Source: an uncultured Gammaproteobacteria bacterium
GTDB taxonomy: Bacteria; Pseudomonadota; Gammaproteobacteria; Tethybacterales; Tethybacteraceae
Length of the DNA stretch: 64,000 bases
Direction: 5' to 3'
Assembly: GCA_964509765.1 (NCBI GenBank)
Contig: CAZDYI010000011.1
Coordinates: forward strand, 12,824 to 76,823
Both the position numbers and the translations under genes were made by a program. Within the stretch, counting starts at the first letter, position 1, and every line of letters begins with the position of its first letter. This document shows positions 6,910 through 63,806 of this stretch, one piece after another. The notes beneath the pieces were generated by a model. The model was not told where the DNA came from, searched no databases, and saw only the letters and a list, made by a program, of their open reading frames with translations.

Positions 6910-6915
6910 TTAGTT

Positions 6916-45531: not shown

Positions 45532-45538
45532 GCCCGCG

Positions 45539-46024: not shown

Positions 46025-46497
46025 GGTCTTTCTGCCCTAGCGCAAGCGGACTTGCGGTCCAGGATGCGCAGGGATGCCGCATGTTATCACCAATCGAGCC
46101 GGAACCGTCGATCGGCCTCCGGAGCGAAAGGCAACCAGGCAGCCTGCGCAGTCCGGCGCACTGGGTTCAGGCTGCGCTGATTCAGGGAGCGCCGGCATCG
46201 GCACGGCCGACGTGCTAGTCCTTGGAGCCGGTCCGCCGGGTCGGATTACTCGGGAAGAAACCCCTTGGAGTTCCCGGCCGGAGCAGGGGTGTCCTGCTCC
46301 TCTGGGCACCTGAGGAGGTATTCCTCAAGCTGAGGTTACCAGCCATCCGCGATGTCGAAACAACAGCCCTTGCAGACCATCAAGCCACAGCCCCCGTCAT
46401 ACCGATCCCATGCGAAAGAGCAGGAGCAGATAAAATGCGCAGTCAAGCAATGGCAGAAAATTCACTCAATGCGAATGAACCTATGTGCCATGGCAAA

Positions 46498-48353: not shown

Positions 48354-48449
48354 GAGACCATTATACTACGAAATTGCCCAACGGGCTCTCTCGTGCTTGT
48401 CCATGCAGGAAACCTGAAGTCCGACTTTGCTAGGGGACATTGCTCGGGA

Positions 48450-49764: not shown

Positions 49765-51225
49765 TCAGAACTCGGGCCGCGGGAAGAGCGCCAGGCCCGA
49801 GTACAGGCCGTCGAAGGTCTCCGGAAGCGGGAACACGCCCGCGTCCCGCATCCTCTGGCCGAGCTCGCGGCGCGTGAGCCAGCCGACCAGGTCGTCGAAG
49901 TCGAACACCCTGCGGTTGATCGTTACGTTCTTGAGCGGGGCGGGCTTGGGCTCCCACTCGTGGATGGGCACCCGGGTCGTCGCGAAGACGTAGTTGTACG
50001 GGCGGTCCAGGCCGCGTATGATGTCGAAGGCCCTGGTCGAGTGGTTGCTTATCCTGGTCGGGTCCTCGTTCTGGACGATCTCGTCGTACGGGTAGCACGA
50101 GCCGAACAGGGCGTTGACCTCCTCGATGTCGATCGTGCTGTAAGTGAACGGCGGCATGGTCGGGGACGGGTAGCCCACGCACGTCCTGTTGGTTCCCTCG
50201 TAGGTCGCGGCGCCGAAGCGGTTGGGACCGTGCGAGATGATCACGAACGGGATCCCGTCGGTGACGTCGCGGACGTTGGGGTTGAGCAGGAAGTCCGCCA
50301 CGTACCTCGAGTAGTCGTCCGAATACTGGTCGAATGGGTTCTCGTTCGAGTGCAGGGTGGAGTTGTCGATGTTGTCCGTCGGCCGGCAGACGGTCGGGTC
50401 GGTGCCAGGGCCGGGGACGAGGTCCTCGGGCCTGCACACGACCATCGGCGCGGCCCCGAGCCTGCGGTCGCCGCGCTGGGCGAACGACCTGAGCTCGGAC
50501 AGGTGGGCCACAGCAGCGGTCTCGTAGAACGGGATGAAGGCCCCGGCCCTCGTGGCCTGGTCGAAGCCGTAGGCCGCGGTGGAGAACACCGGGTGCACGA
50601 CGTAGGTGAGCGCGGCGCCCCAGCTGTCGGTCGGCGGGAGCCCGAGCGTCGCCCACGGCAGGTCGCCGCGGACCTGCTCGCACACGCCGAAGGCGTGCTT
50701 GCCGGCGTTGTTCGCGGCCGAGCCATCGTCGAAGTCCTCGGCGAGGGGCGCGCGATCGCGGCCGATGCCGCCGTCTCCCCGCAGGGCAAACCTGTTGTCG
50801 GACCCTCCGCGCAGGCCGTCGGGCGCCGGGACCATCGGCACGTAGACCGCCGAGCGGTCCTCGATGCCGTCTCCGTTGACGTCCGGGCAGGGCAGGTACG
50901 GCCGGCCCTCGGGGACCCGGGCGATCCGGTGGCCATAATGTTCATACAGGTCTCGTGTCCCGGTGTTGCCGTTAAGGTTCAAGTAAAGGACGTTCATCCC
51001 GGGGCTGCGCCGCGAGGCGGCGTAGCCGACGACGGCGTCGATCGCGTCGGTTATGCGCTGTGACGTCCTGTCGTAGGCCTTGTCCTCGAGCTGCCTTCCG
51101 ATCGGGAGCACCGCGCCGCTCAGCAAAAGGCCGAGCACGGCGAGGACGATAGCAAGCTCGACGAGCGAGTACCCCTGCCTGCGCCCGCGCCGCGCCGCGG
51201 CCTGCGTCCCGGCCCTAGCAGGCAT
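49765..51225 (-). CDS. Large prepilin-type (class III signal) pseudopilin-like protein P3, 486 aa
   Basis: 17-aa basic leader then 'G|YSLVELAIVLAVLGLLL' (Glu at +5); shared motifs 'YLPCPDVNGDGIEDR', 'GVCEQVRGDLPW', 'SWGAALTYVVHPVF', 'ISHGPNRFG'. Confidence 0.7.
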   Translation of the reverse strand: MPARAGTQAAARRGRRQGYSLVELAIVLAVLGLLLSGAVLPIGRQLEDKAYDRTSQRITDAIDAVVGYAASRRSPGMNVLYLNLNGNTGTRDLYEHYGHRIARVPEGRPYLPCPDVNGDGIEDRSAVYVPMVPAPDGLRGGSDNRFALRGDGGIGRDRAPLAEDFDDGSAANNAGKHAFGVCEQVRGDLPWATLGLPPTDSWGAALTYVVHPVFSTAAYGFDQATRAGAFIPFYETAAVAHLSELRSFAQRGDRRLGAAPMVVCRPEDLVPGPGTDPTVCRPTDNIDNSTLHSNENPFDQYSDDYSRYVADFLLNPNVRDVTDGIPFVIISHGPNRFGAATYEGTNRTCVGYPSPTMPPFTYSTIDIEEVNALFGSCYPYDEIVQNEDPTRISNHSTRAFDIIRGLDRPYNYVFATTRVPIHEWEPKPAPLKNVTINRRVFDFDDLVGWLTRRELGQRMRDAGVFPLPETFDGLYSGLALFPRPEF

Positions 51226-52834
51226 CGCAGGTTCCGGGCGGGACCCATGCCTGGCCGGGCACGACCCCGAGCGCGCGCAGCTCGTTCATGAGCTGCTCGC
51301 CGCTCATGTGGACGAGCTCGTCGTCGAAGACGGAGGAGTCGGTGTCGTGGGCGGGCATGGATATGAAGGAGTGGCTGTGGGGAAAGCTCCTCCTGATGTT
51401 CATGCGGGGGTGCAGGTCGGTGCTCGAGCTCCCGCCGCAGAAGCTGTTCGGCGGGTAGTCGTTGTTCTCGTTCTCGGGATGAGTGCTAGGCCAGTCGATT
51501 ATCCCCGGCGGGAGGTTCGCGCTGCAGTTGACCCCTCCCCCGAGCGGGGAGGCGTAGTTGCCGCCGCCCTGGTGGGGGACGGCGCCGACGCCGTTGGGAC
51601 CGTGGGAGACCACGACGAAGGCCATGCCGTTGACCACCTCGTGCTGCTCGTAGACGCGGGCGACGGTGAGCCCCTCGAGGACGTCGAACAGCGTGAGGTC
51701 GGTCTCGGCGACGTCGTTGATCGTCCTGCCGACGAGCGTGATCACCGCGGGGTTCGCGGTCATCGAGCAGCCGATGTTCTGCGACTCGTACGCGGAGGTG
51801 CACACGAGGCCGGGATAGTCGTCCACGATCGGCCGGACGACCTCGCCGTTGATCGTGATTTCGACGCCGGCTTGCCATGCGTAGGTTATGTTCGATCCCG
51901 AGGCGGTGTCGTGGAGCCGCCTCTGGTAGGAGGCGAACTCCCGGGTCTCGACGGTCCGGCCCCCTGCGACCAGGTCGAGGTCCTCTCCGACGAGCGGGAA
52001 CCTGGGGTCGAACATGTCCGAGCGCGTCTCGGGCCCGATCCCGAGCACCTGGCTCGCGAAGACGGGGTCGACCCGGTAGGTGAAGCGGTTCCCCCACGGG
52101 TCGTGCGCGTGGGTGCCGAGCGTGCTCCACGGGAGCATGCCCTTGTCGGTCGCGCAGCCGCCCCGGGTGATCAGCTCGTTGTCGGACCTGTCGTCGGATA
52201 TCGCGACCGACATCGGGATGAACTCGGCGACCGAGTAGAGCAGCTGCAGGTTCGTCAGGTGGGAGAGCGGGTTGGGCGTCATGCCCGCGCCCGGCCGGAC
52301 CCCGTGCGTGTAGTAGAAGTGCGGGGTGACGTCGCCGGGCATCTCGAGCTCGTAGGTCCTCTGGGTGCTGTCGAGCGACCCGCCGACGTACGACCGGACC
52401 AGCAGGTTCATCCCGTCGATCACGCCGACGTTCCTCGTTGCGGGCCCGGTGAAGCCGCCGTCGGGGCCGACGTCGGCCGACGGGAGCGCGTGGCGGTCCT
52501 CGAGTCCGTCGCCGTTTATGTCCGGGCAGGGCAGGTACGGCCTGTTCGCAGGTATGGGAGCCCGGACGCCGGGGTTGGAGTCGAGGTAGGCCACCGCGCC
52601 GGGGCTGCGGTGGGTCGTGGCGTATCCGACGATCGCCCTGGATATGTCCGCGAGCTGGCCGCGCACCTCGTCGGCGCGCTCGGCGCGTATGCGCGCCCCG
52701 AGGGGGACGAGCGACATCCCGAGCAGCAGGCCGATCACGGCAAGCGCTATGCCGGCCTCGACCACGGTGTAGCCCCCCGCGCGGGCGCCGTTGCGCCCGC
52801 GCGCGGCGGCCTGCACCGTCGGTCTTCCCGCCAC
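51215..52834 (-). CDS. Large prepilin-type pseudopilin-like protein P2, ~540 aa
   Basis: GTG start set just after the upstream stop; leader then 'G|YTVVEAGIALAVIGLLL'; 'YLPCPDINGDGLEDR', 'GGCATDKGMLPW', 'DPWGNRFTYRVDPVF', 'VSHGPNGVG'. The longer ORF (to 53866) overlaps P1 and was trimmed. Confidence 0.7.
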   Translation of the reverse strand: MAGRPTVQAAARGRNGARAGGYTVVEAGIALAVIGLLLGMSLVPLGARIRAERADEVRGQLADISRAIVGYATTHRSPGAVAYLDSNPGVRAPIPANRPYLPCPDINGDGLEDRHALPSADVGPDGGFTGPATRNVGVIDGMNLLVRSYVGGSLDSTQRTYELEMPGDVTPHFYYTHGVRPGAGMTPNPLSHLTNLQLLYSVAEFIPMSVAISDDRSDNELITRGGCATDKGMLPWSTLGTHAHDPWGNRFTYRVDPVFASQVLGIGPETRSDMFDPRFPLVGEDLDLVAGGRTVETREFASYQRRLHDTASGSNITYAWQAGVEITINGEVVRPIVDDYPGLVCTSAYESQNIGCSMTANPAVITLVGRTINDVAETDLTLFDVLEGLTVARVYEQHEVVNGMAFVVVSHGPNGVGAVPHQGGGNYASPLGGGVNCSANLPPGIIDWPSTHPENENNDYPPNSFCGGSSSTDLHPRMNIRRSFPHSHSFISMPAHDTDSSVFDDELVHMSGEQLMNELRALGVVPGQAWVPPGTCDAC

Positions 52835-52836
52835 AG

Positions 52837-54177
52837 TCAGAACTCCGTCGCGTAGTAGCCGACCGCGGGCTTGGGCAGCGGGAAGATCCCGTCCGTCGTG
52901 AGCCTGCCTATGAGCGTGCCGGTCTTCATCCACACCAGGACGTCGTCGTAGCCCTCGTCCTCCGGCAGGACCGGAAGCGCGGTGGGCTGCGCGCGCACGA
53001 ACACGCCGGTCCAGGAGTCGTCGCGCCCGCATGCGGCCTGCAGGTCCGCGCCCGAGCAGCCGCCGGGGGCGATCTCGGCAACCTCGCAGGGGAAGGTCAG
53101 GCGGGCGTTGATCTTCTCGTGCACCCTCTCCCGGCTCGCGTAGCTCGCGAACGGCCTGCACAGGAACGGGTCGGACGGGCTGCGGCCGTGCTGGTACACC
53201 CGCCCGCCGAGGCCGTTGGGACCGTGGGAGAGGATCGCATACGCGATCCCGTTCGACACGAACGGGTAGGTCACGCCGGCCGCGGCGAAGTCGAGCTCGA
53301 CGCCCTGTCCGGCGCCGCCGCCGACGAAGCCGTACTCGAGGACGCTGAAGCGCGGGCCGTCTGCGGTGTTCGCGCTGCGGCGCTCGAAGCTCTGCCTGCT
53401 GATGTCCGTCCCGGAAACCTCGCCGGCGTGCACGATGTAGCCGTCGGGCGTGCCCGGCGCGCGCTCGAGCACGAGGCCGGGCCTGTAGAAGTACCGCAGG
53501 CTGCCGACGGACGGCGCGGCGTTGGCGTTGTGCCGGAAGGGGTACGACAGGACGTTGGCGGACTGCTCGAGCCGGACCGCGTAGTTCCTGTACACGGGGG
53601 TGGCCTTGGTGTCCTGGTCGAAGCCGAAGGACCCGTGGCTGAAGTTGCCGTCGACCCAGTATGTGTAGTGCTGCCCCCAGGGGTCGGCGGGCTGGGTCCC
53701 GAGGGTGCGCCAGGGAAGCAGGCCCTTGCTGTCTATGCAGCGCAAGGGGGTGTTGCCGAGGTCGGCGACGTACTCCGGCCGGGCGGTGATCGTGACGGTG
53801 AACAGCGTGGCCGGGTCGTCGGCCATGAACCGGTCCTCGAAGCCGTCGCCGTCGACGTCGGGACACGGCAGGACAGGCCTGCCCGACGGCGCGTGCACGG
53901 TTATCCGCACCTGGCCGCCGACGGCCCGGTCGCGGTAGGCGACGTCCGCGCCGCGGCTGCGGTTCTCGTTCGCGTAGGCGATCACGGCCTCGTGCACCGA
54001 GCCCATGTACTCCTGGACCCCTTCGCGCTGGTCGTTGCGGATCCAGTCCGAGAGGTTCCAGGCCGCGGTCGACGAGATCATCAGCAGGACGACGAGCACG
54101 AGCGCGATCTCGACGAGGGAGTAGCCGGAGGGGGCGGGCCTGCGCGCCCCCGTCCGGCCTCCGCTTCGTTTCGTCAC
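52837..54177 (-). CDS. Large prepilin-type pseudopilin-like protein P1, ~446 aa
   Basis: GTGA overlap with the giant gene's stop; leader then 'G|YSLVEIALVLVVLLMI'; 'VLPCPDVDGDGFEDR', 'LRCIDSKGLLPW', 'DPWGQHYTYWVD', 'LSHGPNGLG'. Confidence 0.7.
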   Translation of the reverse strand: MTKRSGGRTGARRPAPSGYSLVEIALVLVVLLMISSTAAWNLSDWIRNDQREGVQEYMGSVHEAVIAYANENRSRGADVAYRDRAVGGQVRITVHAPSGRPVLPCPDVDGDGFEDRFMADDPATLFTVTITARPEYVADLGNTPLRCIDSKGLLPWRTLGTQPADPWGQHYTYWVDGNFSHGSFGFDQDTKATPVYRNYAVRLEQSANVLSYPFRHNANAAPSVGSLRYFYRPGLVLERAPGTPDGYIVHAGEVSGTDISRQSFERRSANTADGPRFSVLEYGFVGGGAGQGVELDFAAAGVTYPFVSNGIAYAILSHGPNGLGGRVYQHGRSPSDPFLCRPFASYASRERVHEKINARLTFPCEVAEIAPGGCSGADLQAACGRDDSWTGVFVRAQPTALPVLPEDEGYDDVLVWMKTGTLIGRLTTDGIFPLPKPAVGYYATEF

Positions 54178-57100
54178 TGCTGCGACATCCTGCCGCCGAC
54201 CATGCGGAAGACGTCGTTCCCGGGGACCCCGGCGCGCGGCGAGCCGGAGCCGTCGGACCTGTGTATGTTGCCGAACAGGAAGTAGTCGTCCAGGTCGGTG
54301 TTCTCGGGGTCGTCGAGCAGCATGCACTTGTGCGCGTCGCCGACCTGGGTGGATTGCGGGTCGACCGGCCCGTCGGATCCCCACGGGGTGGAGTCGAGCG
54401 CGTTCTCGAGGCGCAGGAGGTCCGCTGCCCCGGGGCCGTCGAACTCGTAGGTGACGTCGAGCAGGTTCCTCCTGGTGATCAGCTCCCGCTGCTGGGAGAA
54501 CTCGATCACCTCGTCTGCCGACGCGCAGACCGCGTACTCGATCAGCGGCTCGGGGCTGTGCCCGATCAGGGCCTTGATGTTGGTGAACCGCACGGGACGC
54601 CCGCCGATGTGTATGGTGATCCCCTGCGGCAGCCGCGCCGCCGGCGGGGCGAACTCCATCTCGGTGCCGGTGTAGAGCGCGACCGAGCTGCGGGCGTTGA
54701 GCCTGATGTTGTCGCTGAAGTGCTGGATGTCGACCTCGGACGACGGCAGGTAGGTCCCGAGCAGCGGGTTGATCACCGAGTTGGCGGGTATGGTGAGGGT
54801 CACAGCATCGAGAACCAGCTCGACGTCGTCGAGCACCCGGACCCACATGTTCTGGTAGATGGGGTTCTCCATGGCGGTGAGGTCGTCGTTGAAGCCCAGT
54901 ATCTGCGTCCTCGACGTGTCGGTGAGGTCGGCGAACGGCGTTGTCACCGCGGGCTCGATCCTGCGGTCGATCACCATGCCGCCCACGTCGTACGCCATGG
55001 CGGGTCGGAAGCCGGCATCGGCGGACGTCGGCTCGTGCGGGTCGAGCGTGGTTCCCGCAAAGAGGGTGACCGAGCGCTGCGCATCGACCTCGGTCGGGTC
55101 GGTCAGGTCGGTGAAGTACCTGTGCAGGGTGATCTCGGCGTTCGCCGGGAATACGATCCTGTGCAGGTGGGGCGCAAACTCGTACTGGGGGTCCATCGCG
55201 AAGTTGGACGGGTCGAACGCGCTCGGGTCCGCGGCCTCGACATCCTCGTTCCTGAACACCGAGTCCATGGCCCTGGTGTCTAGCACGGCGGAGGTGAAGT
55301 TGGCGCCGCTCGGGAGGAGCTCGTCGGGAATCGCAAACCTGACGGTAAGCAGGCGGTAGTCTCCGAGCGCGGGAGTGGCGGTGTCGGTCACTATCCTGCC
55401 TCCCCTGAATCCAATGCCGTCCACCTCGTACTGAACTCTCCCGGAATTGATGCTTTCGTAAGGAGTGGTGGAACTCCCCAGTGATATCGCCACCGAAGTG
55501 GTGATCGCCGACGGGCGGGTGTATATCCCCGGCGAGCCGCCGCCGCCGCCTGCGACAACGTTGCCAACCGCCCCGTTCGCGCCGAGGGTAAGGACTATCT
55601 CAGGTCCGGAGGTTTGCTCAAGCCTCCTTGACGGCAGGGCCAGGCCGAGCTCCGGATAGACGATGCTGCCGCCGGGCAGGATCTCGGCGCCTATGGTGAC
55701 AGCGGGCGTGGGAACCTGGAGCCACAGGTTCCTTCCGGAGATGACAGGGTCCGACTCCGAGAACTCGACCTCGATCTCGTTGAAGATGGGATTCCTCTCA
55801 AGGTCCGCATGGGTGAGGATGCCTTCGGTGAGCTCCGGGTAGAAGCTGCGGAAGTCGACGATGTCCTGCTGCTCCGACAGGGGAAGCTGCCGGCGCTCGA
55901 TGTACAGCTGGCTCGCGTCCGTGGCCAGGAGCGGTATCCTGAGGTTTTCGTCAGGCGGTGCGCGCCTCGAGGGTGTCCAGTGGTTGTCAAAGCTTGCCGG
56001 GACGTCAACCGATATCCTCGTTGTCGCCGGCCACATCCCGACGCCCGGCTGCTTGTAGAAGGCTACAGGCGCGAAGAGGTCCATGTGCTGGCCGACCGTG
56101 AGCGTAGTGACTTGGTCTCCGAACCTTTGGAGGGTGAACCCTGTGAGCTGCGGCAGGGTGAACCTCGCTTCGCTGTTCAAGGCACCGCCGGAATAGTCGA
56201 TCACACGGAGGAAGGCCGTGTGGCTCGGCTCCGTGTCGGAGGGGGTGTGGTCGCCAGGGTCAAAGCCAAAGTCAACAGGGTTTCCGCCGTCGTCGAAGGC
56301 CCTGTTTTGGTGTCCGGAAAAGCCGTCCGTGGAGGCGGTGGACGGAAGCATGGCGGCGGTGGACCAAGCCCGCTGGTAACCGCTGTCCGTGGCCTGAACC
56401 CTGAATTCATTGAAAGTTCCCGAGCCCGAGGTGTTGACCAAGTCCTCAATGTCGTCACCATCAATCTGTACGGTGATGTTGACGTCGAAAAAGCCTTCGA
56501 TGTTGTTCCATGTGTTGCCGCCTTCGCGGATCTGGAACTGCGAGGCAACGTTCGTCAGCAGGATTTCAACGTCCACGTCGCCAATCTGGGAATTGGCGCC
56601 GCCGAGCTGCTGCAAGGTAAGGGTGAAGGGCACGCCGCAGAAAGGGCAGTAAACCGGAGGTCCCACAGGGAGGGCAATGGTGACGTCGGTGTTGTTCAGC
56701 GGATACTGGGTGCCCGTGTAGTCGGCGAGCCAGGCGTCGTCGTGGGTCTTGTTGTGCGGGATCGCCATGTTGAGCGGCAGCGCACGGGAGTGGGCCGGGT
56801 TTGGCACTGGCGAGAGGCCTGCAATTGTGACGGCGTCCAGCGCGAGGGCCGCAGTCTCGAAGTTGTGGTCGCGCAGTGCCATCCACCACTCCTCGCCCTC
56901 GCCGGTCGTCGTCTCGAATATCTGGCTCTGCGCCCGGACCCCGATGTCGGTCCGCGCCTCGATCGCTCCCTGCCAGGCGTAGCCCGGCGTGTCGAACTTG
57001 GCGACCTCGCCCGGGGCCAGGGTAACAACCTCGAACCGCGTGTCGGGGTCCTGCGCGCCCGCGGCGCCGTAGGTGGTGTCGACGGTGATTGTGGATGGTA

Positions 57101-60100
57101 TCGTGAGCGTCATGGTTGACAGGGGGTAGTTGGTGACGGCGTTCGGATGGGGGGCCGGGGGGACGAAGTCGGTGCCCGTGAGTGAGCACGGGAAGTTGAA
57201 CGGTGTCCAGATTCCCGTCAAGCCGGGGTACCCGCCCGTTGGATTGTAGGGGGGGCCAGCGGGGTCGAATGTCAAGGGATTGTTGGTGATTGCGGGATTG
57301 AGGGGGGAGGGATAGGCAGAGACTCCCTGTCTGTTCGCGCAGATGTTCAGCGGCACCTCGCCGAGGTCGACGACCCTCTGGAACGTCGATCCCGGCAGGA
57401 CCTCGGGCAGGGACAGCCCCGGGCCGGTCCGCACCGCGTCGCCCCTAACCGCCACCTCGAAGCCCGTCACCTCGTCGACGAGCCTCATGTCGCTGAGGTC
57501 GTATGTGTCGCTGCCCTCGACGTAGCTGCTGCCGGGGCCGAGGTCGATCGACACCGCCAGCCCCGCGGCCTCTACGTCGTCGTGCTCGGACACCGCAAGC
57601 TCGGTCCCGCCCCCGAGGTGCAGCGTTCCCGCCATCCGCGCCGTCACCCGGTAGGAGGACAGCGCCTCGTTGCCGAGCGTGTACCCGCCTAGGACCACTG
57701 TGACCGGCTCCTGGTGGCCGCGCGCGGTCGGGTCGTCCGGCTTCACCTCCGGCAGGTGGTAGGGCTGCGTCAGCCCCGGCTCCTCCTGCAAAAACTGCAT
57801 CCCTCGCGGGCCGGGGCGGATCACCACAGTCTGGCCCGGCGTCCCGAAGCTCGCGAACCCCGGGAAGGGCTCGATCGCGTTGACGTCGCTCGAGCGACGC
57901 ATCGCGCGGAGCCCGCCGCCTTCCGTGAACTGCACCCCGGCGACCGTCTGCGTCAGGCCCGAGCCGTCGACAACCTCGATGTCCGGAGGGACGATCCAGG
58001 ATCCCCGGTAGCCGTGCACGATCAGCCCCGCGAGCGGCGGCGAGGATTCCGGCAGCTGCACCGCCGCGCCCGGCAGCGCAAGGGCGTTCAGGCCCTCGCC
58101 TGCGCCTGAGGCGCAGTCCTCGTCCTCGACTCCGGCCCGGTCCTCGCGGCACTCGTCCGCAACCGCGTAGAACAGCGGGTTGTTCTGTGCGAAGACCAGG
58201 TCGTCGGGACGGAAGTCCGTGTGCTGCCAGTCGTTGTCCCTCTTGCTCCAGGATAGCTCGATCAGCGACTGCGCCCTGAGCCGGCCCAGCGGGTCGTAGG
58301 CCGAAGCCGAGCGCAGCCGGAAGATCTGGCCCTTGGTGACGGTCCCGCCGGCCCGCCTCGCCACGGCGCTGCCGCCCCTGACCGTGCTGACCACCTGGTA
58401 GCCTTCCGAATTGGCGACGAAGCTGAACGACAGGTCGGGGTCGTCTCCCGGAACCTCGTTCCCGCGGATCAGCAGGCTGTTGGATGGGTCTACCCAGCCG
58501 AAGTCCGAGCTGATGAACGCGACCGGCCCGTCGATGAAGGTGCCGTCGTGCAGCCATTCCACAGAGTCGCCGACCAGCACGATGTCGGAGTCGAGTATCA
58601 TCCCGGAGACCACCAGGTCCGTGTCGTTTGCCCCCATGCTGGCCGTCAGGGAAGTCACGTGCCTGCCGGCGTCTATGTCCCTTCCCGCCGGGATCAGCAG
58701 GCGCGGGTTGTTGACCGCAAAGCCCTCGGGGACTTCCCTGACGAAGTTCCGCTCGACTACCTGCGACATGTCGTTTCCGCGCCTGTACCGAAACCCCCTG
58801 CCCCAGGGGATTAGGGAGCGTCCGGAGTCGACGTTTGCGGAGTCGACCCACACGACGGAGACCCGGGCGGGCCCCGTGAACGAGTGCTGGTCCCTCGAGA
58901 AACGCAGGCCCTCCCTGCGGTCCCGGTCGGACGGCGCCCCGGACGGAATCGGCGAGAAGCCCACCCCGCGGAACACCCGCCCGCCGGGCGCGAAGTCGTC
59001 GCTGTAGACGCCCAGCGTTGCGAAGAACGGCGAGCTGGAGGTGAACGTGGTGATGTCCGCGACCAGCGCCGGGTTCGGGAGCATCCCGAACTCCGCCTTG
59101 CTGCCCTTCGGGACCAGCAGGCGGCGGAAGGGCTGGTCGTTGCTCTCGTACATCATCGCGTCGGTGTGGAAGTCGAACACCGCGCGCAGGCTGTCCGGCA
59201 GGCTCGAGCCGAGCGGCATCGTGTCGCTCGGGGCGAGCGAGGCGTCCTGGTAGCTGTCCCCGTAGGGGGCGATGTCCGTGGTCGGGTTGAGCCGGATCGC
59301 GAGCTCGGCCAAGTTCGGGTCGATGTAGGTGTCGGGGTTTCCGGATGTGCGGATCACGCTCACCAGCACGTTGGTCAGCTCGGAGCCGGCGAACAGCCCC
59401 CCGGGGTTGGCTAGGGCGGCGCCAGGCCGGAAGGGGGCGACCAGCGGCGTGGAGCTCTCCCAGTTGCCGAACTGGTTCAGCGCGACGTGCGAGTTCGCGA
59501 TGGTCACGGTTACCGACAGCGGGTCCGGCGTTGACGTGGTGAGCAGGCCCGGTATGCCCAGCGTGAGCTCGAGGGGCTCGGCTCCGAGGTTGATCCGCCC
59601 CGGGTTGGCCTGCATCAGGAAGCCGCCCTCGGCCAAGTCAATGTCTATCGTCTGGGCGACGATTCTGACCGTGAAGTCCGTGCCTAGGGCGGAGGCGCCA
59701 GGGTAAACCCTGCCCACAGTGAGGGTTGCTGCCGCGGTGTCCACCGGGACGATCGCTGCCGCTGACGTGTCGAGCTCCACCCCGACGCCCATCTCGTCCG
59801 TCAGGGCGTACGCCGAGAAGCCCACCGACGCAAGCGCCGCACGGTTGGGGGCGGGCTGCAGGGCTATGTTGTTGACCGCAAGCCGGTCCGGGTCGCCCAC
59901 GGCCTGGTAGCGCACGTCCAGCCTGCTGATCGGGTTGTCGATGAATGACACCGTCACGGTGTCGGCCGGGTTGAGCGGTTCGAACGACGGGGTCCTGATG
60001 GTCAGCGAAAGCAGGGTCATCTCGACGGGCGTGGTGCCCGCTATGTCTGCCTGTATGGTCACCGAGGCGGTGTCGTACCTCGCGAACGGACCCATCCTCC

Positions 60101-63100
60101 GCGACATCGGCACCACCATGTTGTGGTACGGGTATACGTGGAAGCCGTTGTGGTGCGGGTCATTCGTCAGGTTGGTCCGCACCCGGCTGCCGTAGACGAC
60201 TTGTGACGGGTTAGTCGGGGCGCCTGAGATTGTCTCTCTGAACGGGCTGGTGCAACTGGCGATCGTGCTCAATGGAAGGCCCGTGGAATCGTCTCCGACA
60301 TCGAAACCGCCCCAAACTATGAAGCCCGAGGGCAACGGAGTGACCGGATAGGAGGCGGGCAGGGGCACTGATATGCCGCGTCCGACATCGCACACCACGT
60401 AGTCCGTTCCCAGGAAGTTTACGATCCTGTCCCGCTCAACAACCGGCTGGTCCGTCATGTACGAAAGCAACAGGTCGTAAAGCGTGTCGCCCACCGGCTC
60501 CGGGAAGTCGTTCGGGCTAACCAGCCCCATCCCCATCGACTCGATCCTAAAGCCCGCCTGCCCCCAGGTCTGCGGGACCATCGAGAAATCGCCGTCGTCG
60601 TGGTGCAGCAGCTGCGAGTATCTCAGCTGCCCGCCGTTGACGAGCGTCAGGCGCGCGCGGACCTCTGTGCCCGACTGCTCGCTCCCGTCCGGAAGGATGA
60701 TGCCGTTGGCAACGTCGACGTTCTCGATCACCGCTCCCGGCGGCAGGTGCGCAACAGCGCTCCTGCCCGGCAGCGGGCCCGTGTTCGTCCCGTACAGCTG
60801 CGACGGCGGGCGCAGGCTCCTGGGCGCGTTGCGGTTGTAGAAGCCGAACAGCCTGCCGGTCGCCCCGTGGCTGAAGCGCTGCTCCCCGAGCGGGACCATC
60901 GCCCCCGCAGGGTAGTAAAACGTCGTGTCGTGCGGCATCGTGACCTTGCCCTCGAGCGTCAGCCTCGTCGGCGCGATCACCGATTCTCCGTCGCTGATCG
61001 GGTACGGGTGCACCGTCGCCAGGTACTCGCCGTCCGTGCCCTCTGACCCGATTATCCGCAGTCTCGCAGGGGATGTGATCTCCCTCGGGGCGTTCTCGTC
61101 CGGGTCCAGGTTGCGCGGCTGGTTGATGTTCCGGTCGAAGATCGGGTGCATGGTCACCTCTGCCGGGAAGTAGCCGTACGCCCCGTTCGGGTCGGTGATC
61201 ATCAGCACCTCGTGCTGCGTCCTGTCGATGTACTGCGGCGAGCCGATCGCCCGCCCGAACGGCCTCGGCAGGGTCCCGCCCCTGGCCGCGGAGTACTCGC
61301 CGAAGATCGGCAGCACCTCGTCGAACGGGTAGGGGTCGCTCTCGTAGTGGTTGAAGGCCACGGCAGAGTTCAGGAAGGGTATCTGGTTCGGCAGCGGCGG
61401 CGTCGGCAGCAGGCCCTGCGAGCCCGAGGCGATCGGCGTCATCGCCGGGACCGCAAGGTCGGGAATCACGGCCCCCGGAACGGTGATGTCCCCGAGGTCC
61501 CTTGTCACGCCGTAGCTGAAGAACGCGTCGTCGGACGGGATTATCGGGAATGCGTGCCTCGTGTCGATCGCTCGGGTGAAGACCGCCGGCATCCGTGGGT
61601 CGGGAGTGAAGATGCTGATCTGCCTGTCCGACCCGAAGATCGTGACCGCGACCGTCGTCTTGATGAACGTCCCCGCCGGCAGCCTGATGTCGTAACCCAG
61701 CTCCGCGAGGTTGCCGGCGTGTCCCGGGCGCAGGTCCGCGAACAGTGCGTTGAAGTCGCCGGAAAAGCTCCTGTAGTTGCTGTCGCCTCGCCCGGCGCTT
61801 GTCGCAAGCGTAAGCTCGTTGCTTATGAACGGAACCCGAAACGGTATGGTCCTCCTGCCGGTCTGGATCGGGTAGGTGGCTCCGGGAGCGCAGGCGGGCG
61901 GGGAACCTGTCGGGGCTACGGGGGTGCCCGCAGGGATGGGTATGCAATACTGAAACTCCTGGTCGACGGACTGGTCCGGGGGCGTGTTCCTGCCGATGTT
62001 AACCATGACCAATGTAGAGGTTGCGGGCACCTGTATTTCGAATGGAGGGCCGATCCGTGTGGTCATGATGACTGTCGCCGGGGCCGTGACAAGGGTGCTT
62101 ATGGTCCTCGTTCCCGTTGAGGAGAGGTTCGTCGGACGCTCGGGCGAGGTGTGCACCGGCGCCGCGAGCTGCAGCGGCGTGTTGGCCTCGATTACCGCTA
62201 TCCACTCCACCGGCCCTGATGACGTGGGCAGGGACATCTCTCCGTTCTCGTGGAACAACTCGCTGACCGGCGGTAGCTGGAAGTTGCCGATCGCTGACCC
62301 CATCCCGTCTTGGACTGAGACCCGGCCGGCAACCCAGTTAGGGACGTACACAGCCGGAACCTCGCCGGCAGGCAGCAGCCCGACCGCGCGCACGGAGGAG
62401 CCGATCTCTGCGTCGTAGTTGACTCCGTCCATGAAGGCCGGCGAGAACTCATACTGCACCCGCCCTCCCTGCAGGCGCTCGAAGTCCTCCATGTCGAACG
62501 GCGGGAAGAAGTTCGCTCCGAGGGGCACCATAATGTCGGGAGCGCCGGGGGGTGAGCCAGGAGGGGGTGGGAACGTTGCGTAATCCACCGGCCTACTGTC
62601 GTAAAGATGCCTGTTCACCCCCTTCGAAGGCCGACCGAAGCGCCTGATGATGTACTCCGAGTTCGACGACTCGAACGTCGCCGGGTCCGGCAGGTGCCGG
62701 TTGCGCTCGTAGAAGTCGCTCAGCGCCTGGCTTATCCCGTCCAGGTGCGGGTCCGCGTCCTGCCTCGAGAACGCATCCAGGATCTCCTCCCTGTGCACGT
62801 AAGCCACTTGGTCCATCGTCGCGTCCGCGTTGCCCGCGTTGTGCACGAAACGCCTGTCGCCGTCCTGGTTGTCCGGGTCCAGCGCGAACGCCGGGTTGGA
62901 TGCGTCCGGGCTGCCCAGGCTCGGCCTCTCGGTAAGGGATGGCCTGTACTCGTCCCAGTACCCCTCCTGCTGCCCCTCGTGCACCCCCGGCGAGATCACC
63001 ACCGCCGCCAGGCCGTCTATCGTCGTCGTGACCGTGTCGCCCGAGGGGTCGTGGGGATGGTCCACGATGTCCACCGAGAGCCAGTCGTCCAGCACCCGCG

Positions 63101-63806
63101 TCAGCTTGTAGTTGTTCAGCGGCCGCACCGTGTCCAGCAGGTTGTAGGACGCGGCGTACCAAAGCCTGTCGCCGTTGGCGTTGCGTATGTCGCCGGATCC
63201 GGCCCCCCTGATGAAGCTCGCGTAGTCGTTGTACTCGCGCCACGGAAGCCGGCCGAACGAGCTGTCGGTGACCAGCGGATCTGTCCTCGACCTGGAGGAG
63301 CACAGGACGAATGACGGGTCCGACACCCCGTCAAGGGACAGGTCGTTGAACGAGTCAAGGCCGTCGGGCACGTCCAGGGAACCCGCGCCGGTCTCGCTCA
63401 CGGCGAACGGGGAGACCAACTGGAAGTCCCCCACGTTGTCCGGGCACGGCAACTGCCCTGGCCGGAACGGAACCATCATGTCGTCGTTGAAGGTGCCGAC
63501 GACGTGCGCGTTGAACACGTTGTAAAGCGGCCTGATCGAGACGTTCCCGCTGAACTTGAACGGCGGGCTCGGCGGGTTGACCGCGTAGTCGATTATGGCC
63601 TTGCGGGCCTGGGAGAGGGCGGCGGGCGTCACCTTGGCCGCCTTGGCCTCCCGCTCGAGAATCTCGGACTGGAAGCTCACCACCCCGAAGGTGGTGATCC
63701 CGAACATGACGAGCACGAGCAGCAGGACCTGGACGAAGCCGCCCTGGGCTCCGCGGCGCCATGCGCCGCGCCTGCCCGCGCTTCCCGTGGTGGTCCTGTC
63801 GGTCAC
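54174..63806 (-). CDS. Giant (3210 aa) prepilin-like protein without Glu5 (GspK/tip-pilin-like) and with a huge non-repetitive G/P/T/S/D-rich C-terminal extension; candidate modular pilin/adhesin
   Basis: N-terminus 'MTDRTTTGSAGRRGAWRRGAQGG|FVQVLLLVLVMFGITTFGVV'; shares the head motifs 'LPCPDNVGD', 'VLCSS...GRLPW' with P1-P3; single uninterrupted 9.6-kb ORF. Confidence 0.7.
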   Translation of the reverse strand: MTDRTTTGSAGRRGAWRRGAQGGFVQVLLLVLVMFGITTFGVVSFQSEILEREAKAAKVTPAALSQARKAIIDYAVNPPSPPFKFSGNVSIRPLYNVFNAHVVGTFNDDMMVPFRPGQLPCPDNVGDFQLVSPFAVSETGAGSLDVPDGLDSFNDLSLDGVSDPSFVLCSSRSRTDPLVTDSSFGRLPWREYNDYASFIRGAGSGDIRNANGDRLWYAASYNLLDTVRPLNNYKLTRVLDDWLSVDIVDHPHDPSGDTVTTTIDGLAAVVISPGVHEGQQEGYWDEYRPSLTERPSLGSPDASNPAFALDPDNQDGDRRFVHNAGNADATMDQVAYVHREEILDAFSRQDADPHLDGISQALSDFYERNRHLPDPATFESSNSEYIIRRFGRPSKGVNRHLYDSRPVDYATFPPPPGSPPGAPDIMVPLGANFFPPFDMEDFERLQGGRVQYEFSPAFMDGVNYDAEIGSSVRAVGLLPAGEVPAVYVPNWVAGRVSVQDGMGSAIGNFQLPPVSELFHENGEMSLPTSSGPVEWIAVIEANTPLQLAAPVHTSPERPTNLSSTGTRTISTLVTAPATVIMTTRIGPPFEIQVPATSTLVMVNIGRNTPPDQSVDQEFQYCIPIPAGTPVAPTGSPPACAPGATYPIQTGRRTIPFRVPFISNELTLATSAGRGDSNYRSFSGDFNALFADLRPGHAGNLAELGYDIRLPAGTFIKTTVAVTIFGSDRQISIFTPDPRMPAVFTRAIDTRHAFPIIPSDDAFFSYGVTRDLGDITVPGAVIPDLAVPAMTPIASGSQGLLPTPPLPNQIPFLNSAVAFNHYESDPYPFDEVLPIFGEYSAARGGTLPRPFGRAIGSPQYIDRTQHEVLMITDPNGAYGYFPAEVTMHPIFDRNINQPRNLDPDENAPREITSPARLRIIGSEGTDGEYLATVHPYPISDGESVIAPTRLTLEGKVTMPHDTTFYYPAGAMVPLGEQRFSHGATGRLFGFYNRNAPRSLRPPSQLYGTNTGPLPGRSAVAHLPPGAVIENVDVANGIILPDGSEQSGTEVRARLTLVNGGQLRYSQLLHHDDGDFSMVPQTWGQAGFRIESMGMGLVSPNDFPEPVGDTLYDLLLSYMTDQPVVERDRIVNFLGTDYVVCDVGRGISVPLPASYPVTPLPSGFIVWGGFDVGDDSTGLPLSTIASCTSPFRETISGAPTNPSQVVYGSRVRTNLTNDPHHNGFHVYPYHNMVVPMSRRMGPFARYDTASVTIQADIAGTTPVEMTLLSLTIRTPSFEPLNPADTVTVSFIDNPISRLDVRYQAVGDPDRLAVNNIALQPAPNRAALASVGFSAYALTDEMGVGVELDTSAAAIVPVDTAAATLTVGRVYPGASALGTDFTVRIVAQTIDIDLAEGGFLMQANPGRINLGAEPLELTLGIPGLLTTSTPDPLSVTVTIANSHVALNQFGNWESSTPLVAPFRPGAALANPGGLFAGSELTNVLVSVIRTSGNPDTYIDPNLAELAIRLNPTTDIAPYGDSYQDASLAPSDTMPLGSSLPDSLRAVFDFHTDAMMYESNDQPFRRLLVPKGSKAEFGMLPNPALVADITTFTSSSPFFATLGVYSDDFAPGGRVFRGVGFSPIPSGAPSDRDRREGLRFSRDQHSFTGPARVSVVWVDSANVDSGRSLIPWGRGFRYRRGNDMSQVVERNFVREVPEGFAVNNPRLLIPAGRDIDAGRHVTSLTASMGANDTDLVVSGMILDSDIVLVGDSVEWLHDGTFIDGPVAFISSDFGWVDPSNSLLIRGNEVPGDDPDLSFSFVANSEGYQVVSTVRGGSAVARRAGGTVTKGQIFRLRSASAYDPLGRLRAQSLIELSWSKRDNDWQHTDFRPDDLVFAQNNPLFYAVADECREDRAGVEDEDCASGAGEGLNALALPGAAVQLPESSPPLAGLIVHGYRGSWIVPPDIEVVDGSGLTQTVAGVQFTEGGGLRAMRRSSDVNAIEPFPGFASFGTPGQTVVIRPGPRGMQFLQEEPGLTQPYHLPEVKPDDPTARGHQEPVTVVLGGYTLGNEALSSYRVTARMAGTLHLGGGTELAVSEHDDVEAAGLAVSIDLGPGSSYVEGSDTYDLSDMRLVDEVTGFEVAVRGDAVRTGPGLSLPEVLPGSTFQRVVDLGEVPLNICANRQGVSAYPSPLNPAITNNPLTFDPAGPPYNPTGGYPGLTGIWTPFNFPCSLTGTDFVPPAPHPNAVTNYPLSTMTLTIPSTITVDTTYGAAGAQDPDTRFEVVTLAPGEVAKFDTPGYAWQGAIEARTDIGVRAQSQIFETTTGEGEEWWMALRDHNFETAALALDAVTIAGLSPVPNPAHSRALPLNMAIPHNKTHDDAWLADYTGTQYPLNNTDVTIALPVGPPVYCPFCGVPFTLTLQQLGGANSQIGDVDVEILLTNVASQFQIREGGNTWNNIEGFFDVNITVQIDGDDIEDLVNTSGSGTFNEFRVQATDSGYQRAWSTAAMLPSTASTDGFSGHQNRAFDDGGNPVDFGFDPGDHTPSDTEPSHTAFLRVIDYSGGALNSEARFTLPQLTGFTLQRFGDQVTTLTVGQHMDLFAPVAFYKQPGVGMWPATTRISVDVPASFDNHWTPSRRAPPDENLRIPLLATDASQLYIERRQLPLSEQQDIVDFRSFYPELTEGILTHADLERNPIFNEIEVEFSESDPVISGRNLWLQVPTPAVTIGAEILPGGSIVYPELGLALPSRRLEQTSGPEIVLTLGANGAVGNVVAGGGGGSPGIYTRPSAITTSVAISLGSSTTPYESINSGRVQYEVDGIGFRGGRIVTDTATPALGDYRLLTVRFAIPDELLPSGANFTSAVLDTRAMDSVFRNEDVEAADPSAFDPSNFAMDPQYEFAPHLHRIVFPANAEITLHRYFTDLTDPTEVDAQRSVTLFAGTTLDPHEPTSADAGFRPAMAYDVGGMVIDRRIEPAVTTPFADLTDTSRTQILGFNDDLTAMENPIYQNMWVRVLDDVELVLDAVTLTIPANSVINPLLGTYLPSSEVDIQHFSDNIRLNARSSVALYTGTEMEFAPPAARLPQGITIHIGGRPVRFTNIKALIGHSPEPLIEYAVCASADEVIEFSQQRELITRRNLLDVTYEFDGPGAADLLRLENALDSTPWGSDGPVDPQSTQVGDAHKCMLLDDPENTDLDDYFLFGNIHRSDGSGSPRAGVPGNDVFRMVGGRMSQQ

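Follow-up and report, generated by a model that had tools for sequence, protein, structure and literature searches.

Cassette genes and their genomic setting

The four genes studied here (the cassette) lie on the minus strand of the window, i.e., the whole 64-kb stretch of DNA that was analyzed, and encode a very large protein (the giant) followed by three prepilin-type proteins (P1, P2 and P3). In window coordinates, the genes, the parts of the giant referred to below and the downstream neighbor were as follows:

54174..63806, minus strand: giant gene, GTG start, 3210 aa, computed mass 345 kDa, pI 4.6 (ORF listing and translation)
63666..63806, minus strand: N-terminus of the giant (aa 1–47), with an Arg-rich leader up to Gly23, then F24-V-Q-V-L28 and a hydrophobic helix
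62607..63806, minus strand: head of the giant (aa 1 to ~400), related by homology to the P family and the short X proteins described below
54177..54566, minus strand: C-terminal module of the giant (last ~130 aa), with a motif conserved in 10 giants
52837..54177, minus strand: P1, GTG start, 446 aa, prepilin-type
51215..52834, minus strand: P2, GTG start, 539 aa, prepilin-type
49765..51225, minus strand: P3, ATG start, 486 aa, prepilin-type
48450..49739, minus strand: hemL, glutamate-1-semialdehyde aminomutase (from its translation), a conserved downstream neighbor outside the system

The ORFs, their translation and their GC3 agree with the preliminary description in that these are four real genes, intact, tightly packed and of host-like composition: GC3 is 0.88–0.93 (0.88 in the giant), like that of the neighboring dcw genes. 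The overlaps of 4–11 nt reported earlier were found at the giant/P1 junction (4 nt, GTGA) and at the P2/P3 junction (11 nt), but P1 and P2 are separated by a spacer of 2 nt. The earlier figure of 3.2 kDa per 10 aa for the giant is meaningless and is replaced by the mass given above. A promoter/terminator scan of the locus was uninformative. The other genes of the window were distributed as follows:

0.6–10 kb: HTH/peptidase and AAA genes
10–17 kb: housekeeping genes
17.5 to ~30 kb: dcw genes, Pfam-annotated
~30–35.7 kb: ddl, ftsQ, ftsA, ftsZ and lpxC, assigned only by ORF pattern and synteny with locus L002
39.8–48 kb: low-GC island with AAA_15, PIN, methylase and HATPase genes
48.4–49.7 kb: hemL

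As had been noticed at the outset, no type IV filament ATPase, platform, prepilin peptidase or secretin was found in the 64-kb window, the ORFs at ~30–35.7 kb and ~36.0–38.0 kb being outside the scan. The genes of type IVa pili are normally scattered, and a cassette without a nearby machine is unremarkable there; likewise, the minor-pilin operon of type II secretion systems (T2SS) or type IVa pili can sit apart from the machine genes. In the lineage of the window, the cassette adjoins hemL and the dcw cluster, apart from any machine. The Aminotran_3 gene (hemL) occupies the same position in Logan contig L001, which begins inside its copy of the giant, and in L002, from a relative with 75% IleRS identity. 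The order giant, three pilins, hemL, dcw is conserved in L002; this synteny and the base composition are those of vertical inheritance, and they speak against a recent horizontal transfer of the cassette, which the preliminary description had likewise dismissed from the GC content.

The gene order of the cassette is repeated in at least six other genomes. Carriers include OZ244940.1 (Ca. Amphirhobacter sp.), OZ244916.1, the Amphimedon queenslandica symbiont AqS2 (on MEIE01000006.1), the ENA entries ERZ25070769, ERZ25069315, ERZ26694059 and ERZ25073846, and one 130-kb NCBI contig. The IleRS of the window is ~52% identical to those of its nearest named relatives, in Burkholderiales and Neisseriales, which gives a coarse placement. 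Judging from sequence relationships, the lineage of the window is related to the Tethybacterales sponge symbionts. A metagenome-assembled genome (MAG) of this order has been reported to carry a T4aP system (PMC12625764); the literature found on Tethybacterales pili amounted to one TXSScan statement.

Sequence features of the pilins and the giant

Cleavage/methylation sites of the form G|Y(S/T)(L/V)VE with Glu at +5 had been assigned to P1–P3, and translation bears them out (...APSG|YSLVE in P1, ...RAGG|YTVVE in P2 and ...RRQG|YSLVE in P3, with Glu5 in all three). In the 66-member alignment A2, P2 included, Gly-1 (G18) and Glu+5 (E23) are invariant, and Glu5 occurs in ~95% of 227 P-family members. 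Such sites suggest that P1–P3 would be processed by prepilin peptidase. The N_methyl model was matched at E ≤ 0.1 by 62 of the 66 P-family members. With regard to model thresholds, P3 scored above them for PF07963 (24.4 bits, cut-off 21.2) and TIGR02532 (22 bits, cut-off 16.3), P1 fell below them (14.1 and 12.4 bits), and P2 and the giant matched neither model; P1 showed also a weak T2SSG match at residues 161–188. The HMM comparison with minor-pilin families suggested earlier gave the N_methyl/TIGR02532 motif for P3, but no homology of P1–P3 to GspH/I/J or PilV/W/X. An AF2 model of P3 (pLDDT 70, pTM 0.78) displayed a helix at residues 21–71 followed by beta strands; a Foldseek search of this model against the PDB returned nothing.

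Each pilin has its counterpart at the same position of the cassette in other genomes. P1 is orthologous to the first pilin gene of L002 (351 bits) and of AqS2 (198 bits), to be compared with 69–103 bits against P2 and P3, while P2 and P3 are orthologous, respectively, to the second (398 bits) and third (419–454 bits) pilin genes of L002. On these comparisons, P1–P3 are best described as ancient, position-conserved orthogroups, not as recent duplicates. Across genomes, the pattern of three Glu5 subunits and one subunit without Glu5 is conserved.

The leader of the giant reads ...AQGG|FVQVL, with Leu28 at position +5, so Glu5 is absent. Residues G23, F24, V27 and L29 are invariant in alignment A3 (9 giants), and the motif (Q/R)RG|F(V/I)(H/Q)V(L/M)L is found also in the giants of L003, L004 and L005. 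The lack of Glu5 in the giant, stated in the preliminary description, is a conserved trait: in all 13 homologous giants whose N-terminus was read, and likewise in three of the short X proteins, (Q/R)RG precedes a hydrophobic run that contains no Glu. The Kyte–Doolittle average exceeded 1.6 only in 19-residue windows starting at positions 19–29, i.e., there is a single hydrophobic stretch at ~19–47. An AF2 prediction of the giant head from 9 sequences placed a helix at 22–76 with low confidence (pLDDT 43.5), and the model was unusable. The head is marked by the motifs RPGQLPCPD, FGRLPWREY, GDIR..NGDRLWYAAS, AAVVISPG and LPDPATFE. In profile comparisons with hhalign, giant heads matched the P family (96.5%, E 8.3e-10) and the 435-aa X protein of L010 (98.3%, E 1.8e-14), and many metagenomic X proteins matched the giant by BLASTP only at residues ~13–400. 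The earlier proposal that all four proteins share one head is thereby upheld. Neither the giant nor its first 127 aa matched T2SSK, PilX_N, N_methyl or the NCBIfam GspK model (E up to 5–10), and three short X proteins likewise gave no GspK-type match within these limits. With its pilin-like N-terminus devoid of Glu5, which is to be expected of K-type apical pilins only, the giant head is of the K type.

Between the head and the C-terminal module there is a body of ~2,700 aa, non-repetitive. A repetitive adhesin stalk is ruled out as the nature of the giant, since self-BLAST gave no internal repeats. The giant contains no other hydrophobic segment than the N-terminal one, and 14 Cys residues in 7 near pairs; the single N-terminal hydrophobic segment, the paired cysteines and the acidic pI fit an extracytoplasmic protein and a filament-tip reading. 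At E ≤ 1 the giant matched nothing in Pfam or NCBIfam, and PDB sequence searches with the giant alone or with a profile of 9 giants returned nothing; the PilY1/PilC beta-propeller, in particular, did not appear in either the family searches or the search with the 9-giant profile.

The C-terminal module displays the motif ...SP.P...C...GDAH.CMLLD.PENTD.DD.F.F...(15–22 aa)...ND.FRMVGGRM, in which C, EN, D, F, N and GG are invariant in 10 giants. Short X proteins end in a sequence (YLE..EN...D..F......ND.φ.φφ.P, where φ is hydrophobic) that aligns in register with it, although the profile-profile match is weak (E 3.7e-4, probability 36%) and hhalign against single short X sequences was not significant. 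For this reason, the module is presented as a candidate closing strand that might return to the head, an idea derived from motif conservation. A shared tail in giant and short X fits the model of C-terminal beta-strand complementation put forward for GspK, PilY1, MshQ and CpaL (PMC12918778).

Concerning the size of the giants, full-length homologues of 3201 and 3162 aa were found in other assemblies at 64–66% identity, and more distant ones of 2111–3369 aa at about 32–37%. Those of Ca. Amphirhobacter sp., AqS2 and one gammaproteobacterial MAG have 3329–3337 aa, and other related giants reach 3971, 4142 and 5636 aa, so that lengths run from 2.1 to 5.6 thousand residues across the lineage of the window. 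Taking together the lack of nearby machinery, the Glu5-less giant, the shared head and the vertical inheritance, the reading given in the preliminary description is supported.

Short homologues at the end of a nine-gene filament operon

The short form of X (~400–600 aa) lacks Glu5 and that of Y (~220–300 aa), the counterpart of P1–P3, contains it. The short X–Y pair forms the end of a conserved, nine-gene, MSHA-like type IV filament operon, an arrangement which is new here. The operon starts with an MshL-like secretin, a TPR protein, an ATPase whose c-di-GMP-binding domain is of the MshE type and a GspF-like platform; three envelope proteins without annotation come next, and X and Y close it. 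The complete arrangement was seen in L010 and L013, where the envelope proteins are of ~505, ~210 and ~160 aa. Of 19 metagenome loci in which the sequence extends 8.5 kb or more upstream of X, 17 had secretin, ATPase and platform in the same order; of 26 in which it extends 5.5 kb or more, 23 had ATPase plus platform. The X–Y operon occurs widely in metagenomes from soil, sediment and groundwater.

The secretins of L010 and L013 obtained their best score as MshL (TIGR02519, 237.6 bits against a cut-off of 250.2), and their ATPases contain MshEN with the MshE-type c-di-GMP motif. The best scores of the X–Y-linked machine were with GspE (510.6 bits) and GspF (315.7 bits), below the equivalog cut-offs. 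A MshM-like gene was not found in the L010/L013 operon, in which MshI/J/K-like genes were unrecognized too; nor were GspC, GspL and GspM homologues recognized in the X–Y-linked operon. Three short X proteins and three I/J/K-like proteins gave no match to Pfam, and the X of L010 gave none to NCBIfam either. Near many X–Y loci there is a probable GspG-like major pilin of ~200 aa with a GspG-like N-terminus; the pilin near X–Y machine loci reads GFTL(I/V)EIAIVLVIIGLLLGG.

The relationship of Y to the P family extends to the full length (hhalign probability 100%, E 4e-47, with the 277-aa Y of L010), and the alignment of this Y with the 486-aa P3 runs from terminus to terminus. The extra mass of P1–P3 consists of insertions across the family core, alignment A2 having 935 columns for 424 profile positions. 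The P/Y family comprises at least 242 clusters at 50% identity in public data. Beyond the N-terminal motif, no Pfam or NCBIfam model was found for the P/Y and X families; Y and P proteins display the GspG-like motifs D.WG..Y and S.G.NG, with weak matches to T2SSG, TIGR01710 and TIGR01708. X has a median size of ~459 aa; some members have 860 and 1031 aa, and in the lineage of the window the size rises to 2111–5636 aa. By these comparisons, the cassette is probably an enlarged version of the terminal X–Y pair of a widespread, undescribed pilus operon, and the absence of nearby machinery appears as a derived state of the lineage of the window.

Proposed function and alternatives

The interpretation that we favor, with somewhat better than even confidence, is that the four genes constitute the tip (initiation) module of a type IV filament, with the giant in apical position. 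The giant, with a class III-type signal peptide devoid of Glu5, as in GspK, PilX, PilK and CpaL, would be the first subunit, because no subunit would stand above it to form a salt bridge. P1–P3 would be stacked below it and link the giant to the body of the filament. The module would descend from the last two genes of the nine-gene operon: X would have gained ~2,700 residues, inserted after the pilin-like head and ahead of the short, conserved tail at the C-terminus, Y would have been triplicated long ago, with each copy enlarged to 446–540 aa, and the cassette would have split off from the machine. The machine, the prepilin peptidase and the ~200-aa major pilin would then be encoded at other loci of this genome. 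We infer that these proteins sit at the tip of the filament; the tail of the giant could fold back onto the head, and its body could bind a host or a surface, as hinted by the sponge-symbiont relatives.

The number of subunits, three Glu5 pilin orthogroups and one Glu5-less subunit, equals that of known tip complexes. Some observations speak against the tip reading. No filament machinery, peptidase or major pilin was seen in the 64 kb of this genome that were covered. P1–P3 belong to one family, and only one Y is present in the ancestral operon, hence the analogy with a four-subunit complex is just one of count. In addition, the N-terminus of the giant matches no PilX_N, T2SSK or N_methyl model, and the match of its tail is weak (36%). 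We know of no precedent for the passage of a 345-kDa non-repetitive subunit through a secretin.

Among the alternatives, the one that deserves most attention, although we regard it as unlikely, is that the cassette encodes the pseudopilus tip of a type II secretion-like machine, i.e., a periplasmic piston or gate, with the giant acting as a plug, a scaffold or a secreted cargo. The best scores of the X–Y-linked machine with GspE and GspF, the GspG-like motifs and weak type II matches of Y and P, and the GspG-like N-terminus of the probable major pilin go in this direction. However, all those scores are under the equivalog cut-offs, the secretin is best scored as MshL, the ATPase bears the MshE-type c-di-GMP domain, GspC, GspL and GspM are unrecognized, and a 345-kDa subunit is hard to fit in a short periplasmic pseudopilus. 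The MshE-type c-di-GMP domain is typical of adhesive MSHA pili. It is less probable still that P1–P3 are the major subunits of a thick heteropolymeric filament whose assembly is merely primed by the giant. The cassette is indeed devoid of a major pilin gene, and Y is the only Glu5 pilin beside X in the ancestral operon, but a separate ~200-aa GspG-like pilin accompanies many of these operons, and filament bodies are not typically built from subunits of 45–57 kDa that bear large and variable insertions.

A similarly low probability is given to the view that the N-termini are ordinary signal anchors or Sec signals of inner-membrane or periplasmic envelope proteins that never polymerize, the pilin motif being a relic. 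The Arg-rich leaders, of 15–23 aa instead of the 5–8 aa of classical type IVa pilins, the scores of P1 and P2 under HMM thresholds and the machine not found in the window would be in line with it; against it, Gly-1 and Glu+5 are invariant, and Glu5 would be useless in a plain membrane anchor, the short homologues lie inside filament-machine operons at nearly all testable loci, and genome after genome keeps three Glu5-bearing subunits alongside one that lacks this residue. Finally, apart from the extreme length and the lack of known domains, nothing suggests that the giant ORF is a pseudogene in decay or an artefact of assembly or annotation. Such an artefact had been considered in the preliminary description, and it is excluded since the ORF is kept at full length in other assemblies (2111–3369 aa). 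The frame is unbroken over 9.6 kb with the GC3 quoted above, eight homologues of comparable length come from independent assemblies with motifs conserved over the whole length, and at least six further genomes share the gene order; accordingly, the probability of this explanation is negligible.

The tip-module reading can be compared with known systems. In GspK/PilX/PilK with GspI–J (PilV–W), as in the cassette, one Glu5-less subunit is encoded with Glu5 pilins, and it is the largest one and has an insertion. On the other hand, there is no HMM-level similarity of the cassette to T2SSK, PilX_N or GspH/I/J, the GspK tip complex is made of four families whereas the four proteins of the cassette are one family, the giant is ~10 times larger than GspK, and its partners have 446–540 aa versus 120–250 aa. 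The Tad pilus of Caulobacter has a minor-pilin-like tip protein, CpaL (~600 aa; PMC12918778), which, like the giant, consists of an N-terminal pilin-like domain, a large middle part and a C-terminal end for which a return to that domain has been proposed. The middle part looks dispensable in CpaL and is ~6 times longer in the giant; CpaL belongs to a Tad/T4c filament, in contrast to the MSHA-like one here, no sequence similarity was detected, and the fold-back of the giant tail, unlike that of CpaL, derives from motif conservation only.

A big protein beside minor pilins occurs also in Vibrio cholerae MSHA (MshQ, ~1,200 aa, with MshD-O-P) and in the PilY1/PilC systems. The likeness to MSHA extends to the MshL-like secretin and the MshE-like ATPase of the X–Y-linked machine, and the tip-adhesin role is presumed. 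MshQ and PilY1 have been set apart from the pilin-family tip subunits, with a C-terminal strand proposed to dock on a K-type pilin, MshP or PilX (PMC12918778). In contrast to this docking on a separate K-type pilin, the giant holds the K-type head and the large body in a single polypeptide. The beta-propeller of PilY1 was not detected in the giant, and the X–Y operon is without recognizable MshM, while MshL, MshE, MshG and MshM are counted, with the pilins, as mandatory MSHA genes (PMC6668835).

The parallel with the modular pilins PilB and PilC of Streptococcus sanguinis, drawn earlier, stands as a conceptual likeness, a pilin module with extra mass for display on the filament, but their defining features are lacking. 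Modular pilins have Glu5 and recognizable grafted domains, and the giant (3,210 aa, with relatives up to 5,636) has neither; the insertions of P1–P3 lie inside the pilin fold instead of being C-terminal grafts, so that the likeness is functional only, and the definition (an IPR012902 module plus a recognizable linked domain) does not cover the giant or P1–P3. In a census of over 1,200 modular pilins, the most extreme multi-domain case had 860 residues (PMC8179133). As to size and number, the cassette resembles the Verru_Chthon cassettes (NCBIfam TIGR02596–TIGR02600), repeated four-gene sets from a different phylum that encode prepilin-type proteins, one of them very large. Membership was rejected, since P3 scored 15.5 bits against cassette protein D (TIGR02596, cut-off 70) and the giant gave no match.

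How type IV filaments start their assembly and what their tips carry is an active question. A 2026 study proposes that assembly is licensed by the C-terminal strand of a large tip protein or of a K-type pilin (PMC12918778). The cassette would be a natural extreme of this licensing-strand model, with a K-type head and a 2,700-residue body fused in one protein, relatives reaching 5,636 residues, and an ancestry traceable to ~450-aa forms within a complete machine operon. The expanded form is kept at a fixed core-genome site in relatives of AqS2 and Ca. Amphirhobacter, which makes it a candidate host-interaction structure for this group of sponge symbionts, and the cassette may be how these bacteria show a huge protein on a pilus tip. 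More tentatively, and with doubts outweighing confidence, the nine-gene operon could represent a distinct, undescribed branch of type IV filaments, whose apical subunit has become in a sponge-associated clade a non-repetitive protein of 0.35–0.6 MDa, exported and displayed or delivered by the filament. If this were true, these would be the largest pilin-type subunits known, and they would imply a route by which non-fibrous cargo of megadalton scale gets through a secretin or past it, possibly for the sake of attachment to the host or of vertical transmission.

Organization and genomic surroundings of the cassette

Four closely spaced genes fill the minus strand of the window between 49765 and 63806:

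54174..63806, minus strand, giant (GTG start, 3210 aa, from the ORF listing and translation)
52837..54177, minus strand, P1 (446 aa)
51215..52834, minus strand, P2 (539 aa)
49765..51225, minus strand, P3 (486 aa)

The overlaps of 4–11 nt that the preliminary description placed between all genes were found at the giant/P1 (4 nt, GTGA) and P2/P3 (11 nt) junctions, whereas P1 and P2 are separated by a 2-nt spacer. The composition of the cassette was host-like, as described, with a GC content of 65–71%, in line with the window core, and GC3 values of 0.88–0.93, the same as in the adjoining cell-division genes. The giant ORF is a genuine gene, since eight homologs besides the window copy are 2111–3369 aa long and conserved motifs are spread over its entire length. 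Only ~190 nt upstream of it lie inside the window. The other features are:

0.6–10 kb, HTH/peptidase and AAA genes
17.5 kb (mraZ) to ~30 kb (murC), dcw cell-division cluster, confirmed with Pfam
to 35.7 kb, dcw end ftsQ/A/Z-lpxC, inferred from ORFs and synteny with the homologous locus L002
beyond dcw, housekeeping genes (IleRS, isocitrate dehydrogenase)
36000–48400, low-GC island (GC 47–60%) past hemL, between it and lpxC: two AAA_15/AAA_21 ATPases, PIN protein, DNA methylase, HATPase_c_3 protein
directly downstream of the cassette, hemL

The statement that no assembly machinery is nearby was borne out: in a Pfam scan of the window apart from the ORFs at ~36–38 kb and the dcw tail, neither an ATPase or platform of a filament system nor a peptidase or secretin was found. 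In the relative ENA ERZ25070769, whose IleRS is 75% identical to that of the window, the same order occurs (giant of 2847 aa, then 455, 493 and 480 aa, hemL and lpxC/ftsZ), with the island absent and housekeeping genes on either flank, which argues that the cassette locus is inherited vertically and that the low-GC island is a later insertion.

This low-GC region resembles an insertion of the defence or mobile type; in L002 it is missing and hemL adjoins lpxC. The stretch 600–10200, of reduced GC (58–65%), is possibly a second such mobile or defence region, and contains one gene with HTH and Peptidase_M78 (ImmA/IrrE-like) domains as well as genes for a DUF1828/DUF1829 protein, for an AAA_14/DUF4143 ATPase and for a protein of 841 aa in which an HTH_23 motif was recognized. 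At 16801–17439 (minus strand), flanked by mraZ and the gene for glutathione synthetase, a protein of 212 aa is encoded that has a glycine-zipper 2TM (Rick_17kDa_Anti) domain.

Pilin-like features of P1–P3 and of the giant

The N-termini of P1 (APSG↓YSLVE), P2 (RAGG↓YTVVE) and P3 (RRQG↓YSLVE; the arrow marks the prepilin-type cleavage site) carry the canonical G↓Y(S/T)(L/V)VE sites recognized earlier, and Gly-1 and Glu+5 are present without exception in a 66-sequence alignment of the P family (P1–P3 and homologs), together with the motifs RPYLPCPD.DGDG.EDR, C...KG.LPW.TLG....D.WG...TY, SHGPNG and a C-terminal FDD..W. The pattern G↓(Y/F)xxxE occurs in ~95% of 227 members, and an N_methyl match in 62 of the 66. 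Against PF07963 and TIGR02532, P3 scored above threshold and P1 below it, and P2 gave no match. A PDB search with the family profile matched type IV pilin N-termini only, and the AF2 model of P3 (pLDDT 70, pTM 0.78) shows a helix at 21–71 followed by beta strands. The signal motif, HMM and PDB profile matches and this model are evidence for P1–P3 being prepilin-type proteins.

The family is genuine and sizeable, since an exhaustive profile search yielded 242 representative clusters with E≤1e-30, and 2,772 when the limit was E≤1e-10; yet no Pfam or NCBIfam model corresponds to it apart from the N-terminal motif. P1–P3 are paralogs across their full length. In BLAST comparisons, P1 paired with the first pilin gene in both L002 and AqS2 (a sponge-symbiont relative), P2 with the second and P3 with the third. 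Since these positional orthologs scored 198–454 bits and paralogs 69–116, P1–P3 are ancient and differentiated rather than recent copies. The profile search also returned P0232, of 2,276 aa, which begins with a P-family head of ~450 residues whose Glu5 site is normal (G↓FTIVE); therefore, very large Glu5-bearing members exist too.

The giant has a computed mass of 345 kDa, a pI of 4.6, a single hydrophobic segment (residues ~19–47) and 14 cysteines arranged as seven near pairs. No internal repeats were found in it, and it matched nothing in Pfam, NCBIfam or PDB, singly or as a nine-sequence profile. Its N-terminus (AQGG↓FVQVL) lacks Glu5, in agreement with the preliminary description, and the homologs whose N-terminus was read start (Q/R)(R/G)G↓F(V/I)(H/Q)V(L/M)L; Glu5 is thus absent in every one of them. 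The head reported as common to all four proteins was recovered: over residues 1 to ~400, the giant showed homology to the P family in hhalign (96.5%, E 8.3e-10), and the aligned part takes in the LPCPD and LPW/D.(W/Y)G motifs besides the N-terminal helix. For the giant head, AF2 gave an unusable model (pLDDT 43.5). The last ~50 residues of the giants are a conserved end, G(D/H)A.xC.L.D..EN(T/S)D.D..F...ND.(F/M)R(M/L)(V/I)GG(R/K)(M/L).

Short relatives in a filament-machine operon and the expanded form

Two loci reached through short P3 relatives contain short relatives of the giant head (X, without Glu5) and of P1–P3 (Y, with Glu5). In the first, L010 (NCBI GCA_964384915.1), the genes are:

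gene 1, MshL-like secretin (TIGR02519, 237.6 bits against a cut-off of 250.2)
gene 2, TPR protein
gene 3, GspE/PilB-family ATPase with MshE-type c-di-GMP domain
gene 4, GspF-like platform
genes 5–7, three unannotated proteins (510, 206 and 177 aa)
gene 8 (X), 435 aa, start KQRG↓AALMLLLLL, no Glu5
gene 9 (Y), 277-aa Glu5 pilin

This X proved to be a homolog of the giant head (98.3%, E 1.8e-14), and Y could be aligned with the P family from one end to the other (100%, E 4e-47). L013 repeats the complete arrangement and a Thiobacillus MAG part of it. Three X proteins used as seeds in a metagenome scan led to 65 loci. Of the 19 loci that extend 8.5 kb or more upstream of X, 17 had secretin, ATPase and platform in identical order, and of the 26 that extend 5.5 kb or more, 23 had ATPase plus platform. 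One Y of ~220–300 aa almost always follows X, and many loci encode a pilin of ~200 aa whose N-terminus is GspG-like, plausibly the major subunit. Complete X ORFs had a median of ~459 aa (outliers 860 and 1031 aa), and their BLASTP matches were confined to giant residues ~13–400. Their extreme C-termini read YLE..EN...D..F......ND.φ.φφ.P; this profile aligned in register with that of the giants' C-termini (E 3.7e-4, probability only 36%), and the giants' motif had no significant match to single X sequences.

Three conserved genes (~505, 210 and 160 aa) lie between platform and X (L010 6015–8694, L013 6114–8730, and matching positions in at least 17 metagenome loci among L019–L076). Their products had no Pfam match, nor the L010 copies any in NCBIfam; judging by their location and membrane topology, these could be PilM/N-, PilO- and PilP-like (MshI/J/K-like) alignment proteins. 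L013 and L041, the latter an X-Y pair with no upstream machine, both come from GCA_016307145.1 (JADMIO010603948.1, JADMIO011294142.1), whose more than 1 million contigs suggest a host (eukaryote) or bulk assembly with bacterial contigs inside.

Expanded loci have a giant followed by three or four large pilins. Giants measure 3337 aa in Ca. Amphirhobacter sp. and 3329 aa in a gammaproteobacterial MAG, both followed by large pilins, and 3329 aa in AqS2, followed by a 454-aa protein named prepilin-type N-terminal cleavage/methylation domain protein in UniRef; several ENA chromosomes (1.8–4.1 Mb) encode giants of 3971, 4142 and 5636 aa. Wherever the flank was visible, no machine genes were found within 10 kb. 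The giant with its large pilins is a lineage trait. The window IleRS is 60–78% identical to proteins on other cassette-bearing contigs and ~52% to those of named Burkholderiales and Neisseriales, which supports, short of proof, a position close to the sponge symbionts of the Tethybacterales. For one Tethybacterales MAG, a T4aP system is reported on the basis of TXSScan (PMC12625764).

In L008 (1–15531; ENA ERZ25069315 contig_1), where the giant call is 5,636 aa long, the second and third pilin genes are separated by an L-serine dehydratase gene. The gene after the pilin cassette is one for endonuclease III (nth, HhH-GPD) in three different genomes (L009 11397–12038, L015 12945–13583, L016 9416–10054) and hemL in the window and L002; L016 has just two pilin genes and no giant.

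Proposed arrangement and relation to known systems

The giant resembles an X protein with ~2,700 residues inserted between head and C-terminal tail. K-type pilins lack Glu5 because no subunit sits above them (PMC12918778); on the model of GspK, PilX and PilK, the giant, which lacks Glu5, would be the apical, first-assembled subunit, with P1–P3 stacked below, joining it to the filament body. Processing by a peptidase, a position at the tip, the folding back of the tail and an adhesive or host-directed function are what we infer. In physical terms, the chief difficulty is passing a 345-kDa, non-repetitive subunit through a secretin. The layout of pilin-like head, inserted middle and C-terminal tail is like that of CpaL (~600 aa), in which the extreme C-terminus comes back to the pilin-like domain, while the middle is dispensable for assembly (PMC12918778); for the giant, such fold-back is presumed.

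Membership in specific families was not borne out, no cassette protein reaching the threshold of the T2SSK, PilX_N, PilY1 propeller or Verru_Chthon models. The machine linked to X-Y may be of the MSHA type: its secretin is MshL-like and its ATPase has the MshE-type domain, but every score fell under the equivalog cut-offs and MshM, mandatory for MSHA according to Denise et al. (PMC6668835), is absent. The cassette is a known kind of system, that of minor-pilin tip complexes and cargo-carrying pilins. The most extreme multi-domain case singled out in a census of modular pilins has 860 residues (PMC8179133). Specialists would be surprised by how large the putative apical subunit is and by its non-repetitive, fold-unknown character, and also by five unannotated components in one whole filament operon type.
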